Of a stretch of DNA of 64,000 bases, positions 1,666 to 56,345 are shown in pieces. Every line of letters begins with the position of its first letter. Position 1 is the first letter of the stretch. The notes under the pieces are model-generated. The model saw only the letters and a program-made list of their open reading frames with translations. It searched no databases and had not been told where the DNA came from. The translations under genes were made by a program, and so were the position numbers. Source of the DNA: Octopus vulgaris (taxonomy: Eukaryota); assembly GCA_951406725.2 (NCBI GenBank), contig OX597814.1, forward strand, positions 15,190,001-15,254,000, given 5' to 3'.

Positions 1666-1847
1666 ATAGATTGCTAGTCACTAAACCTTTTCTATTTTCT
1701 CTCTGTTAATTTCAGGTTTCCTTTCTGTGGAAGAGCGTAGGGTCGAAACGTAAAAGACTTTCTCACTTTCCGAGCGTTAAACTAATACATCTGTTTGTTG
1801 TTTACACACCCATCTTCGTCTTTTATTTTTTTCGTAAACTCTACCTG
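1666..1847 (+). mobile_element. Short hammerhead-bearing (TA)n-associated element, family H1, copy 1
   Basis: About 180 bp homologous to the four other copies. Contains CTTT CTGTGGA AGAGC GTAG GGTC GAAAC GTA AAAG (about 1720-1757). The 3' end abuts (TA)n. Confidence 0.75.
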
Positions 1848-2171
1848 TATATATATATATATATATATATATATATATATAGAGAGAGAGAGAGTGAGAG
1901 AGAGAGACATAGAGAGAGTCTCAGATGAACCTACCTCGCCGCAGGAGGCGCAAATGATGGCAGCGACATCACACTCCCTTATTGACCAAATGCCACATAT
2001 CAGACGAGTCTTTCAATAATAACAGTGTACATTATTTACTTTATTTACATTATTTACATTATTTACATTATTTACATTCGACGAATATTTCTCCTCATCT
2101 TGTTTGTTGCATGTGTTCGCGCGCGTGCGTGAAGACATGCAACACACACACACACATATATATATATGTAT

Positions 2172-2330
2172 AGGATAGGCTTTTCTCGATTTCCATCTCC
2201 CAAATCAATTCAGAAGGCTTTGGTCAACCGAGGTTTATATTAGAAGACATATGCCCAAGGTAATACATGGTGGGCTTGAACCCGGAACCTTGTGGTACGG
2301 AAGAAAACTTCTTACCACTCAGGCACGCAT
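2172..2330 (-). mobile_element. SINE family A 5' fragment, diverged
   Basis: GCCCAAGG...TGAACCCGGAACCTTGTGG...CTTACCAC matches the family head. Confidence 0.65.
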
Positions 2331-2997
2331 CAGTCTTTTTTGTAAGATATGCTTGACATTGAATATGTACGCGGTGAAATAAAGAAAAATAATCATATAA
2401 AGAAATCTATTTATGTGGTATCAGAACATCTCCTGGGCATCTTATCACGCAAAATAAACATGTCAGAACATTTAATTTCTGAATGATCACATTAATTCAT
2501 TGATTATCTAACAGACTATTAATAACCTGAAAATAATTAAAAGCCTATTTCATTTCATAATGTTATTATCATATTAAAATTACAACATATTGTTTTAAAT
2601 TAATGAATACAATTTTCTGTTTTTAGACGTGAATGTGCAGAAGCTATGAAAAATATGAAGGGCGTTTTAGCATGGTGTCAATGGAGGTAAACAATAGTTG
2701 GTTATACAGCAGCATGTTTATTGCTGCTAAATTACATAGCAGGGAGTGGCGGTCATTTTGGTACAATTGTTATCGCACTCGAATAATATTAGAAAGTCAC
2801 GTGGTGATCTTGTTCGTTTTTTTCTCACATAATGTTATATTTGTGTATATACTATGATATGTCTTATTGCACTAGCATATACTTACACACACACACACAC
2901 ACACACACACACACACACACACACACACACACATACACACACGCACACACACATGCATATATATACATGTATACAGATATTTATGAAAGCATATATA

Positions 2998-3470
2998 TAC
3001 AGGGTACGGTGAATAAACTGGCGTCTAAAAATGAAAATATCACTGATTTTAACAGATATATATATACCAAAATTATATTAAAAATATCTTGAAATACTAG
3101 AGTAAGTTTATACAATAAAATCGCCATTGGCTTCAATCACAGCCTCCAAACGACTTCAGAATCTCCTGAAACTCTTATGGACGGTCTTGTTTATGTGGGT
3201 GAATGCTGCCCTAATACTTGGCTTCAGTTCATCTTTGATATTACGGGGAATTTTGTTGGTCTCTAACATAACTGTGCTCCACACATAATAAAAAAGGGGG
3301 TTAGAGTATGGAGTGATAGGGGGCCTGATGTTAGGGGTAATGCAGTCGCAGAAATTGTCTAACAGCCATGACTGGGTTCTCCTGCTTGTGTGGAATGGTG
3401 CAGAGTCCTGTTTCCAGACATAGGGTCTTCTGGAAGCCACCCGCTTGACCTAGGCAGCAGCACTATAGAG
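2998..3470 (-). mobile_element. Tc1/mariner-superfamily transposase 3' fragment with terminal TIR
   Basis: ORF 3156-3440 reads WKQDSAPFHTSRRTQSWL...PP..PYSNPLFYYVW (QDxAPxH and SPDLNP-like motifs). TA|CAGGGT terminus at about 2998. Confidence 0.75.
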
Positions 3471-3831
3471 GCATATATATATATATATATATATATATAT
3501 ATATATATATATGTGTGTGTGTGTGTGTGTGTGTGTACCTATCTATCTATCTATCTATATTTCTCTTTCCATATATATACATACATATATATATATAATA
3601 TATGTGTTTGTTTGTATGTATGTATCCTTGCATGTGTGTATCTATACTTCTCCATATATCATGAGGAAGGGACCATAACCGCAAAATATTGAAATATAAG
3701 TAATAGCTCCAACAGTTCTAAATGTTTTTCTTTCGTTTATTTTGTAATTCATCCCCCATGGTTTCGGACATATATTGTACTTACATAATGCAATATCATA
3801 AAAATACTTCATCGTAACTATTCTATTGTAA

Positions 3832-3930
3832 TCTATCTATCTATCTATCTATCTATCTATCTATCTATCTATCTATCTATCTATCTATCTATCTATCTAT
3901 CTATCTATCTATCTATCTATCTATCTATCT
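3832..3930. repeat. (CTAT)n tetranucleotide microsatellite
   Basis: Directly visible. Confidence 0.97.
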
Positions 3931-53405: not shown

Positions 53406-54699
53406 TTTTTTATTTCAAACTATCAATCAGTGACCGCTATGATATTTTGATACTTTTCACTCTATGGTTATTATATTACGAATTTTATATTTCATTTACT
53501 GTAATTGGCAAACGTTCCAGAATGAGAAACTGAGAAACAAAACAAATCTTAGTTTTAGCTTTGTGTGAATTATATGATTCTACTTTGAATAATGAAAAAT
53601 CTCCCTTTTCTATGCCTTGTTTACAAGTACGTATAACAAACATTTACAACCCACACACACACACACACAAACAGACCGCGCCCGTACACACCACCTGTTT
53701 ATATGCAAATGTACTTGATGACATGAAACACGTGATCACATGTGTGTGTATGGTGTGTGTGTGCGTGTGTGTGTGTGTGTGTGTGTGTGTGTGCGTGTCT
53801 GTTTATCTCTGTGTGTATAATCAGGTATTTATATATGAATGTATTTGTATTTCTGCCATTTTGTAGCTGCGTCATAAAATTAACGATGTAATGGTCATGG
53901 AAAAATTACTTCTTCTACGTCACTCATCTCGTGAATGTATATTTCTCAGTGCTAGCATAGCTCTTTCTGTCTTTCTTTCTACTACTCCTCCCCTCTCTCT
54001 TTCTTCCACTCACTCTCTTTTTATCCCACTCACTCTCTCTTTGTCCCACGCTTCTCGTTCCACTAGATCAAGAGTTAAAAAGCCAAAAGTTTTTTCAGTG
54101 TCGGACACCTAAAACTTGATGAAAGCACGGTACATGCTACCAAGTCATACTGATTTGCGACCGACAATATTGTTTCCTTCCATTTTCCCAATAAAAAAAC
54201 AACCCTGGTTTTTGTTCACATCTTAAATTTTAATTAACTTGTTAATTAATAAATTAATTATTGACTGATTGCTTTTCGAAAGACCTTCTATACACAGACT
54301 TGACCTTTTTAATATTTTCTTATTTCTCGAACAGAGATGTTGTTCTCTTCTTTCTGAATTGCAAGAACTGAAGAACATGGTGTGTGGGGAAATATATATT
54401 GACAAACCGATCAATAATTAATTAATCAGTTTATTAATTAATTAACAATAAAATGAGGACTGCGATAAGTGTCTATGATTTAATTGAAAGAATAAAGAAC
54501 CAAAAGTCCAAAAGTAAACATGTATATGTATGCATGTATTCACACAAGCAGATTCCCTCCCATATATATATATCTGGGGAAACGTATATAGGTGCACATA
54601 TACACAGAGTGTTCGAGATAAATTTGACAGTTTGCATAAACGGAAAAGGAAATGCAACATCCTCTCAATAATAAAGTATTTAGAACAAAATGCAATTTG

Positions 54700-54990
54700 A
54701 CTATCGTTCCATGATAACCGTACGTTCATCGCAGACGTCCTTACATTCTACTATGGTCTCAAGAAGGTTCCGAAACAATGCGCATGCATTCATCACTGAG
54801 CATGGGAAGGACTTTGAACACCTTGATCTCGGCTTCAAACTCGGCTTTGGCGTTGCGAAGTGAACGGTCGGTGCCTTTCTAAATCGCGCTCTAGTATCAT
54901 TACGGTTACAATCAAGGGTGGGAGGCCAGAAATCGGGGCTGGTTCACCGACAACCACTTCTAGAGGCACGGCAAGGAGCCGAATCTTGTT
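54700..54990 (-). mobile_element. Possible LTR-retrotransposon (Ty3/gypsy-like) gag N-terminal remnant
   Basis: GC-richer island with minus-strand fragments PDFWP and NAKAEFE...KVFKVLPMLSDE, resembling gag LPxFWP...EAxF. Frames are broken. Confidence 0.35.
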
Positions 54991-55343
54991 ACCACACCCC
55001 TAGCATTGTAGCAACAACCCTCTCCAGCGTGGGATTGACCAGTCTTCAGCATCTTCTCTTACTCTATTGAATAGAGTCTAAAGCCCTGTTCGAAGATGTA
55101 GCTATGAGCTCCTGCAGTCAGAACACCGGCTGGGAAATCAACGTCCAATCCACAGAAGCACAAAGATATTCTTGCTGATCTCCCTATTTCTGTGTGTATA
55201 TATATATATATATATATATATATACATCCTCAGCTGTGAACTTGGAACTTAACGGGTGAACAATTATAGCGTTTACTCAGCGTACCTATTCATTTAGATC
55301 ACCAGTGAGCACCCCCATATATATATATATATATATATATATA

Positions 55344-56003
55344 AGATTTTGAAAGTTCGTTTAAGTTAGTTTATTTGTATTTTGAAATTAGCTATTTCAT
55401 CTTTAAATATGAAAAATTGAATTTATTAGGTTTTCATTATATACAATTATTTATAGAGATTATTTTAGATCTTGATTATAATATTTGTATATATTTTCAT
55501 TGATAATTTATATATATTAGTCATTTTAAATATTTATGTAATTAGATATAGACTAATATTGATATTAGATTATGGGTTTTCTACCTTATAAATTAAAGTT
55601 AATATTTAACATTATAGTCGATTTCGATATAATCATATTTAATAATAGAGTTTATTATAAGTAAAATTATTATATTATATATATTATTTATATCTTAAAA
55701 ATATTGATTATATTTTTAGATATTTAAACCACCTGATGAATGACTGCGACTCAAAAATTTGAAGACGTTAGCAGGCATGAAACAATCGTAGTGTGATATT
55801 AATTATATTTTTTAATAATTTTGTTATATATTTAAATAATATAAATTAAATAATCTTATGTATTGTTTTAAGTTTTTCATTGTTTGATTTGCCTAATAGT
55901 GGTTTTGTCTCTAATTTAATATAATACAATATTTTACTATAAAATTGGATTCAATCCTAAATCTGATTTTTCCCTGTAAGTTTGGATTTATTCCCTAATA
56001 TTT
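55344..56003 (+). mobile_element. Family H2 element, longer AT-rich copy between two (TA)n tracts
   Basis: Shares the hammerhead and downstream tail (GTGGTTTTGTCTCTAATTTA...AAAATTGGATTCAATC...TTTGGATTTATTCCCTAATA) with 50196-50585. Confidence 0.75.
55726..55793 (+). ncRNA. Type I hammerhead ribozyme motif (same family as 50422)
   Basis: AACCAC CTGATGA ATGACTGC ... GCAGGCAT GAAAC AATC GTA GTG. Canonical core, 7/8 bp stem II with a long loop. Confidence 0.75.
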
Positions 56004-56027
56004 ATTATATATATATATATATATATA

Positions 56028-56345
56028 ATACAGTGTACATTAAAACACATTAAGACGCTTCCAAAATTATAGAAATTTTCACTACCAGTGGACTAGCGTA
56101 GAAGAAAATTAGTCAATAGACTATATATTGTTCATATAAAATACAGTCGAGAATTTATCCCTAATTAGGGGTTTGGACTTTAACTGTTCTTTGTAGCGTA
56201 ATGGATTCCTCTGATGGAAGCCTCTTCATATGTTTTAATGTACACTGTATTTTACATGAATAATATATAGTCTATTGACTAATTTTCTTGTACGCTAGGC
56301 TACTGGTAGTAAAAATTTCTATAATTTTTATTATCCTGATATTAT
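56028..56345. repeat. Rearranged inverted-repeat cassette between (TA)n tracts
   Basis: 56028-56062 is approximately the reverse complement of 56214-56251, and 56063-56146 of 56246-56328. CTGATGG lies at about 56211. Confidence 0.7.

Follow-up and report, generated by a model that had tools for sequence, protein, structure and literature searches.

Hammerhead-bearing cassettes at the (TA)n tracts of an Octopus vulgaris locus: mostly end pieces of Penelope-like elements, some of them probably copied from messenger RNA leaders

Background

What are the short cassettes with hammerhead ribozymes that lie between the TA microsatellites of an octopus genome, and how did they come to be there? The question is raised by a stretch of 64,000 nucleotides (nt) from Octopus vulgaris (contig OX597814.1 of assembly GCA_951406725.2, positions 15,190,001 to 15,254,000, forward strand; hereafter the window), which has a G+C content of 34% and in which TA, CA and ATCT repeats are abundant. 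A sequence-only reading of this window had described about ten well-formed minimal type I hammerhead ribozymes (HHRs) in short non-coding cassettes bounded by (TA)n, and had taken these for a system of non-autonomous, retrozyme-like units or solo pseudo-long terminal repeats (pLTRs), moved by the enzymes of Penelope-like elements (PLEs), i.e. by their reverse transcriptase (RT) and GIY-YIG endonuclease (EN).

By following the cassettes through the 2.8-Gb assembly (227 contigs), we found that four of the six families that were traced (A-D) are PLE termini, that no gene was reached from a fifth (E) and that the sixth (F) is retrozyme-like. We propose, with a probability of roughly two in three, that the cassettes are end pieces of several PLEs lodged in (TA)n, and that the short ones of fixed length are likely complementary DNAs (cDNAs) made from the 5' part of the element messenger RNA (mRNA). 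That PLE ends in TA repeats bear hammerheads has been known before; new are the spliced and paired solo pLTRs bounded at a putative start site, a lineage in which the ribozyme core has changed, and the F unit.

Results and discussion

The cassettes lead to genes for reverse transcriptase and GIY-YIG endonuclease

Self-comparison of the window yielded families A (five copies), B (two loci), C, D and E, to which F was added on inspection (Table 1). In the genome searches the best 40 candidates were scored per query, the main matches being 79-98% identical; the first-look candidate lists, which are not copy numbers, held 2799 entries for A, 988 for B, 2723 for C, 305 for D, 4832 for E and 961 for F.

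For each of families A-D a single gene for RT and GIY-YIG was found in other copies, mostly in broken form. Upstream of family A, five long copies contain a broken gene with RT, a zinc-finger linker and GIY-YIG (profile matches RVT_1, E 1e-6, and GIY-YIG, E 0.004), and the short A copies are colinear with the gene-bearing ones; a direct 5' pLTR was not seen among the A copies examined. The A driver displays the motifs DKG and GLRF, a Cx2-5CxxC linker and a CxxC inside GIY-YIG. Family C has GIY-YIG upstream (E 1e-5) and family D has RT/EN remnants upstream, while 2 of 19 other C copies and 3 of 19 other D copies have the RT and GIY-YIG gene at a distance of 0.4-1.2 kb upstream; their drivers carry the same linker and the CxxC inside GIY-YIG, DKG being seen only for A. 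The label Neptune for these three drivers is a tentative one that follows motif likeness, and the motifs concerned are shared with Nematis. In the case of family E, an extension of about 340 nt upstream reached no gene.

Relatives of the B pLTR flank, on the 5' and on the 3' side, an open frame of 695-745 amino acids that resembles PLE clusters in Atlas. Among six loci, DKT is present in four and RIKWK in five, and all six have a CxCx5C linker, CxxC, CxH and a C-terminal EN but no CCHH, and by these motifs B is assigned as the pLTR of a Hydra-type element. An assignment to Nematis was replaced by Hydra after the motif check, and one to Naiad, raised by a locus (L095) in which the RT seemed C-terminal, was rejected: L095 is internally joined, and full copies have a C-terminal EN and DKT rather than DKA. 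At this same locus an RT fragment of 850 nt lies between spliced B arms (L095:640-2560); the junction contains an extra G, an indication that the RT may have jumped from the 5' end of the RNA into the gene region. In the Hydra-type frames at L097 and L109-L115, RT and endonuclease are separated by a long linker that is rich in Asn and Lys and varies in length, a feature also reported for rotifer Penelopes.

The layout of families B and D, with partial tandem pLTRs, an inverted 5'-truncated arm and an optional tail, is also that of PLEs. The sequence-only reading was right in that the motifs are minimal hammerheads of the PLE type and in that the units are mobilised by PLEs; in other copies A, C and D run into RT and GIY-YIG genes, and the pLTR of B flanks a Hydra-type gene. 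With four of the six families being ordinary PLE termini, the outcome that the sequence-only reading had itself named as removing novelty largely applies, and the notion of a single new system of non-autonomous cassettes falls: A-D are not gene-independent, non-coding tandem units, A, C and D being colinear with genes and B flanking one. Of its narrower terms, 'solo pLTR' fits A and B; 'non-coding' holds for F, which has no gene, but not for D, which carries a GIY-YIG remnant; and 'retrozyme-like' suits F, which had not been listed, and misfits A-D.

Intron loss, a 5' wall and a pairing rule

The B pLTR harbours a GT-AG intron of 995-1329 nt, the TTTTAG end of which lies just before the hammerhead. 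Unspliced copies read AAG|GTAAG...TTTTAG|GTTTAG and short copies read AAG|GTTTAG. Genome-wide, exact 25-base junction patterns matched 59 spliced arms and 13 unspliced acceptors, as against 0 for the reversed controls (the arms of one locus being counted separately); intron retention in this B subfamily is therefore partial, with both states present in genomic copies. In sister subfamilies, near-full-length spliced copies occur at L097 (both pLTRs spliced) and L103, and L098 and L101 show the donor and the acceptor. A 7-nt indel with a linked single-nucleotide polymorphism (SNP) in the tail, together with a third variant, divides the spliced arms 34/12/12 (of 58) and the unspliced arms 7/5/1 (of 13). 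Since the indel/SNP states are common to spliced and unspliced arms, splicing was recurrent and involved several source lineages, and a single intron-less master is disfavoured.

The spliced arms also share a 5' boundary. In a relaxed set of 59 spliced arms, partly different from the 59 exact junctions, 49 end 21-28 nt upstream of the junction and 16 end exactly at 28, at TT|ACTTC, with lesser peaks at 21 and 23 nt. The arm at L235, which has a small deletion, also starts at the 28-nt point, and the sole locus that passes this wall is L257, a spliced pair that is likely a read-through product. TT|ACTTC fits the initiator consensus. The sequence at the putative start (+1) is present in 18 arms. 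Microhomology with the partner arm accounts for 7 of these, and the 11 others are found at nine loci including L257. At the remaining eight loci the base before +1 is G in 5, A in 3 and T in 0, T being the base in the unspliced copy (binomial p 0.005 with G = 0.17). Copying of a cap leaves an untemplated G, as is established for other retroelements. In family A, which has no intron, the ends of 24 of 29 copies lie no more than about 15 nt from a single initiator-like point, which the other 5 pass.

Head-to-head arms occur in 37 pairs, and these obey a rule: 33 combine a short arm with an arm bearing a tail of ~85 nt and 4 have intermediate ends, whereas tail with tail and short with short were found 0 times each. 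Of the 33 short-and-tail pairs, 15 have the tail arm extending further 5', 12 have the short arm doing so and 6 have arms of equal reach. The arms are thus not nested, one not being a subset of the other, and two template copies are therefore needed; fold-back self-priming as the origin of the inverted pairs was rejected on the same ground. No paper on spliced or start-site-bounded PLE copies was retrieved in a literature search, most subscription journals and supplements lying outside its coverage.

The link to (TA)n

The 3' end lies at most 25 nt from a run of at least four TA units in 28 of 29 A copies, 18 of 19 C copies and 16 of 19 E copies, compared with 8.3% of random flank positions. 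In 389 kb of de-duplicated locus flanks, strict hammerheads (see below) are situated at most 300 bp from (TA) of at least seven units in 20 of 22 cases, 4 same-family matches having been dropped beforehand, against a background of 38%; after removal of 7 matches of the locus's own element or the window this becomes 14 of 15 (p=1.4e-5), where the sample consists of flanks of TA-targeting element loci and not of random genome sequence. The association of the hammerhead-like motifs with (TA)n is genuine. At the 5' edge TA is found in 18/29 A, 6/19 C and 3/19 E copies, and in family B it is absent where the pLTR runs on into the gene. The case for TA as a pre-existing target rests on these last two observations because no empty insertion site was seen among the examined loci. 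The likely insertion platform is (TA)n.

Hammerhead cores, including a lineage changed at A6

We used a strict descriptor of the minimal type I hammerhead (cores CUGANGA, UUGANAA, CUGUNGA and CCGANGA, a 4-bp stem II, a perfect palindrome and a 3-bp stem I) and a relaxed one that permits one palindrome mismatch. The strict descriptor has 4 matches in the window (4279, 48998, 50428 and 58630) versus 0 in 60 block-wise dinucleotide shuffles, and the relaxed one 6 versus a shuffle mean of 0.03. Each of the ten sites of the sequence-only reading is occupied by a hammerhead-like motif, in some cases decayed, but few are well formed: three pass the strict descriptor (cores 4279, 48998, 50428), 48778 passes the relaxed one only, and mismatches or odd junctions are found at 1725, 17677, 22904, 49651, 50084 and 55733. 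Beyond that list are the descriptor matches 58630 and 42156, at 2.2 kb and 3.9 kb, respectively, from the nearest (TA) tract of at least seven units, and the family F core at 49164. Rfam returned no hammerhead among the best 150 of 189 matches listed at E<=10, the matches listed being microsatellite-driven miRNA only, and monomer folding of five window motifs was no better than that of shuffles.

The core CUGANGA...GAAA...UH, with stems and a palindromic stem III, is present in B, F and, in its U3:A8 form, C. Departures from it are found in A (A6U), in E (mostly U4C) and in D (odd junctions). Stem pairing is kept across unrelated families with different sequences, but the stem covariation for which the sequence-only reading had asked does not rise above shuffles within B, where ten sequences are 87.5% paired in the stems with 2 pairs showing double changes, and 130-243 of 500 shuffles score as high. 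In family C, decay was rejected as the explanation of the core UUGAAAA, which is common to the family copies and belongs to the published U3:A8 covariants (PMC4209133). The E core, mostly CCGAUGA across copies, has the U4C change, which occurs naturally and is weak but viable (PMC3088659).

Family A is characterized by a lineage-wide, fixed core change. Of 71 motifs with an A-type stem II, 61 have U at position 6, 9 have A and one has C, whereas position 7 is free (50 A, 8 U, 8 C and 5 G); the forms with A6 have other loops and belong to sister families. The family has thousands of candidate copies. Its sisters (L173, L075, L149, L228, L229, L177) have the same stem II, canonical or U4C cores and three-base loops, and thus form a natural series for tests of core changes. 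A hammerhead changed at A6 (A6C) is reported to be of low activity (PMC3088659), and our literature search, with supplements, where A6U or the families themselves may be listed, outside its coverage, retrieved no natural A6U hammerhead. In general, the inserted copies run through the predicted cleavage site and include the whole ribozyme, and their templates were therefore uncut.

A proposed route of copying and its alternatives

The gene links, the intron loss, the wall and the pairing rule are features of the genomic copies themselves, and they would be connected by the following route. Transcription would start at the initiator in the upstream pLTR, and the element RNA would be capped and spliced (or left unspliced). 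The element protein would nick both strands of a TA tract, and sense RNA uncut by the hammerhead would be primed at two internal sites, namely those of the short end and the tail end. Each cDNA would reach the cap or stop short of it, and the two cDNAs would be joined by microhomology. A solo pLTR of 190-285 nt, with the start site as its boundary, would result where the leader is primed, and the ragged gene-bearing copies where a read-through transcript is primed in its downstream pLTR; insertion is predicted not to need the hammerhead. We infer the start site, the cap, the two primings and the use of TA as target from the copies.

Several points weigh against this proposal. Start site, cap, splicing and cleavage are predictions from the genome sequence. 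The arms scored for their 5' ends were partly selected with a pattern spanning 24 nt of exon 1, which inflates the share of long arms, even if it cannot create a wall, and the extra G was counted at no more than eight loci. In C, D and E, in all of which a tail is present, the 5' ends are ragged and there is no wall. To the missing empty site may be added that in the young B subfamily no unspliced copy was found joined to the gene (0/13 downstream, 0/2 extended upstream), the gene link of this subfamily consisting of pLTR/tail homology and locus L095.

The last point would equally be expected if the cassettes were independent SINE-like (short interspersed element-like) families, in which an intron-less B master, and a short A master, arose once, acquired an internal promoter and used PLE enzymes in trans. 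Fixed 5' ends and the 97-98% identity of the young B copies agree with this explanation, and F demonstrates that such units exist here; nevertheless, the indel/SNP alleles common to spliced and unspliced arms, the spliced read-through copy L257, the spliced near-full-length copies and the colinearity of short A copies with gene-bearing ones make it an unlikely one. Somewhat less likely still, in our judgement, is the view that all copies are random 5' truncations of PLEs, with walls caused by pausing of the RT at RNA structure or by copy selection and with hammerheads cutting dimers or tandem RNA as published. Families C, D and E do look randomly truncated, the smaller B peaks at 21 and 23 nt may be of this kind and a palindromic stem III is kept across families. 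However, our selection cannot hide longer copies and yet one spliced locus passes the wall, pausing accounts neither for the extra G nor for the exact loss of the intron, and the whole ribozyme in the copies means uncut templates.

The form in which the matter was put by the sequence-only reading, i.e. distinct retrozyme-like circular RNAs that are cleaved as hammerhead dimers and reverse-transcribed into TA tracts, appears very improbable for the cassettes as a set. It fits F, with its ~306-nt period, its canonical core, its lack of a gene and its stretches of at most about two units, some containing two whole hammerheads, and F matches the non-LTR (non-long terminal repeat) retrozymes described in PMC7229834; it misfits A-D, and even for F no array of more than about two units was found in 30 junction-selected loci and the one unit folded has no more structure than shuffles (z -0.66).

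Retrocopying of the leader, the reading we prefer, can be widened to the claim that in PLE-rich genomes the solo pLTRs arise by the retrocopying of mRNA leaders, with two primings on capped, spliced and uncut sense RNA, in which case intron retention would be no rule, an antisense template would be unneeded and the hammerhead would be a passenger able to lose an invariant base (A6U). To this wider claim we give slightly better than even odds. If it is true, the start site, splice junction and RT start sites of every family can be read from a genome as from a fossil map, and many repeats of TA-rich animal genomes that are filed as unclassified SINEs or as resembling MITEs, the miniature transposable elements with inverted repeats, may, as these copies suggest, be PLE leaders. 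The finding would bear on how PLEs copy themselves, and it names exact start, splice and priming sites. The meaning of intron retention in PLEs is stated to be unknown (Craig 2021, PMC8557442), and an antisense template has been proposed (Arkhipova 2013, PMC3846280); exactly spliced, start-site-bounded young copies in short-and-tail pairs provide genomic evidence for a sense, capped template and two primings, in agreement with the in vitro work of 2024 discussed below.

Family F

The F unit has no gene, a period of ~306 nt and a type I HHR, and elsewhere in the genome it forms head-to-tail tandems of 1-2 units. A partial upstream unit is present in 5 of 14 unselected copies and an upstream unit in all 30 junction-selected loci, several of which have two complete canonical hammerheads. 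Hammerhead cleavage as the source of the F 5' ends is unsupported, as the ends are ragged and spread over unit positions 17 to 223 (the query spanned the site). F is likely a true non-autonomous mini-unit that uses the same enzymes.

Features of the window

The coordinates of the cassettes are collected in Table 1.

Table 1. Hammerhead-bearing cassettes and associated TA tracts in the window
Position	Strand	Family	Description
1462..1847	+	A	5'-truncated 3' end of Neptune-type PLE; core CUGUGGA at 1725, one stem II mismatch; followed by (TA)17
4127..4365	+	C	3' end of second Neptune-type PLE; well-formed HHR, U3:A8 core 4279; TA on both sides
17613..17796	+	A	Short copy; decayed core 17677
21838..22114	-	D	Inverted arm; U3:A8-type core 21967, non-standard junctions
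22432..23152	+	D	Direct arm: GIY-YIG remnant 22432-22676, 3' untranslated region, HHR-like core 22904, end at (TA)n
48604..50621	.		Nested cluster of six cassettes from four families, with TA tracts between
48604-48655, 48849-48866, 49080-49093, 49374-49395, 49790-49954, 50157-50178, 50584-50621			TA tracts of the nested cluster
48656..48848	-	A	Solo pLTR beginning at the 5' stop point shared in the family; core CUGUAGA at 48778
48877..49077	-	A	Solo pLTR of older subfamily; core CUGUUGA at 48998, strict pass
49094..49373	-	F	Copy of ~306-nt non-coding unit; canonical core 49164; stem III partly deleted
49396..49768	-	E	HHR-bearing unit, core 49651
49956..50148	-	A	Copy with decayed core 50084
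50179..50393	-	B	Inverted arm with ~85-nt tail, 5'-cut inside stem III
50394..50583	+	B	Spliced arm: exon 1 of 21 nt (50394-50414) joined to acceptor side 50415; canonical core 50428; short 3' end; followed by (TA)19
55371..56005	+	B	Unspliced copy of older subfamily with 3' part of pLTR intron, core 55733 and tail, up to (TA)n
58365..58640	-		Further repeated HHR family; U3:A8 core 58630, strict pass; no long TA tract adjoining

Further elements of comparable appearance are present. A near-perfect inverted pair of 200 nt follows a TA tract at 46135-46334, with GAAA and the palindrome ACACGTGT in each arm, cut inside stem II; it is likely a head-to-head pair of another PLE family, and no relative was found among the genomic loci compared. 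An old inverted pair at 41984-42294 includes a hammerhead-like motif with a canonical core at 42156. The cassette at 36190-36460, between TA tracts, has repeated relatives at L127 and L256, the latter of which contains a hammerhead-like motif and is arranged in both tandem and inverted fashion. Two TA-flanked elements with inverted ends, 56028-56338 and 36508-36983 (relatives L279, L235; L065), contain no clear hammerhead. Outside the window, another frequent short TA-flanked family, often palindromic and with a hammerhead-like core, is found at L020:1000-1180, L214 and L220.

The remainder of the window holds a long exon on the minus strand (10881-12074) with an acidic, low-complexity N-terminal part and a weak Ion_trans_2 match (E 0.0098), which, by its motif, is likely to belong to a two-pore potassium channel gene; remnants of the RT of long interspersed elements (LINEs) on the minus strand at 13296-15048 and 23495-25004 (RVT_1, E 1e-36 and 7e-28); an (ATT/ATC)n array of 900 bp at 15961-16858; and mariner-like pieces.

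Comparison with known systems

Earlier publications establish that PLEs carry hammerheads, target TA and have inverted arms, tails and two RT start sites, and that retrozymes derive from PLEs, and they give intron retention as the norm (PMC8557442, PMC4209133, PMC11167929, PMC3846280, PMC2377424, PMC7229834, PMC3088659, PMC6765202, PMC3681739, PMC8969392). For one octopus genome many recently active Penelope and unclassified SINE families are reported, hammerheads being unmentioned in the portion of that account used here (PMC13282606).

PLEs of the Hydra clade combine HHRs with insertion at (TA)n, and Neptune has a microsatellite bias (Craig 2021, PMC8557442). The B driver agrees with the Hydra clade in its C-terminal GIY-YIG, DKT, RWK-like motif, CxCx5C, CxxC, CxH, lack of CCHH, HHR in the pLTR and (TA)n (PMC8557442), but the B pLTR has an intron that is often lost, whereas neither an intron nor copies that lack one or are bounded by the start site are described for Hydra in section 11 of that paper. 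Families A, C and D share with Neptune the type of linker zinc finger and the microsatellite bias (Arkhipova 2006 as cited in PMC8557442), and the lineage-wide A6U sets A apart from Neptune-type PLEs. The hammerheads correspond to the minimal PLE forms of Cervera and de la Pena (2014, PMC4209133) in the short stem I, the extra base after A9, the palindromic stem III and the U3:A8 variant, and also in that copies are mostly single and dispersed, with opposite-strand pairs 100-700 bp apart; in contrast to that account, as far as it was covered, A6U is present here, and the 10.1-11.1 pair of B is A-U, A.C, A.A or U.U and not G-C.

In vitro, the PAc/Poseidon element uses two internal RT start sites that define a tail, both strands are extended and the HHR is not needed (Frangieh et al. 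2024, PMC11167929). The route proposed for the cassettes agrees with that system in the two start sites defining a tail, in the cutting and extension of both strands, in the AT-rich target and in the uncut RNA substrate; that work, however, concerns a lizard element in vitro and, in the part considered, reports no spliced or cap-bounded solo pLTRs, and the B tail of the octopus, of ~85 nt and ending upstream of the start codon, is unlike that of its element. With Penelope of D. virilis (PMC2377424; PMC3846280), B has in common the (here putative) start site in the pLTR, a short first exon and an intron ending just before the hammerhead. Those papers emphasise that genomic copies retain the intron and propose self-priming on an antisense template, whereas in one subfamily of B spliced exceed unspliced junctions (59 vs 13) and splicing is found in both arms of pairs. 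F, finally, resembles non-LTR retrozymes (PMC7229834; bioRxiv 10.64898/2026.07.22.740005) in being ~300 nt long and non-coding, in its type I HHR and head-to-tail arrangement and in its co-occurrence with PLEs, and differs from them, as judged purely from its genomic copies, in being dispersed as 1-2-mers that end at a fixed point near TA.

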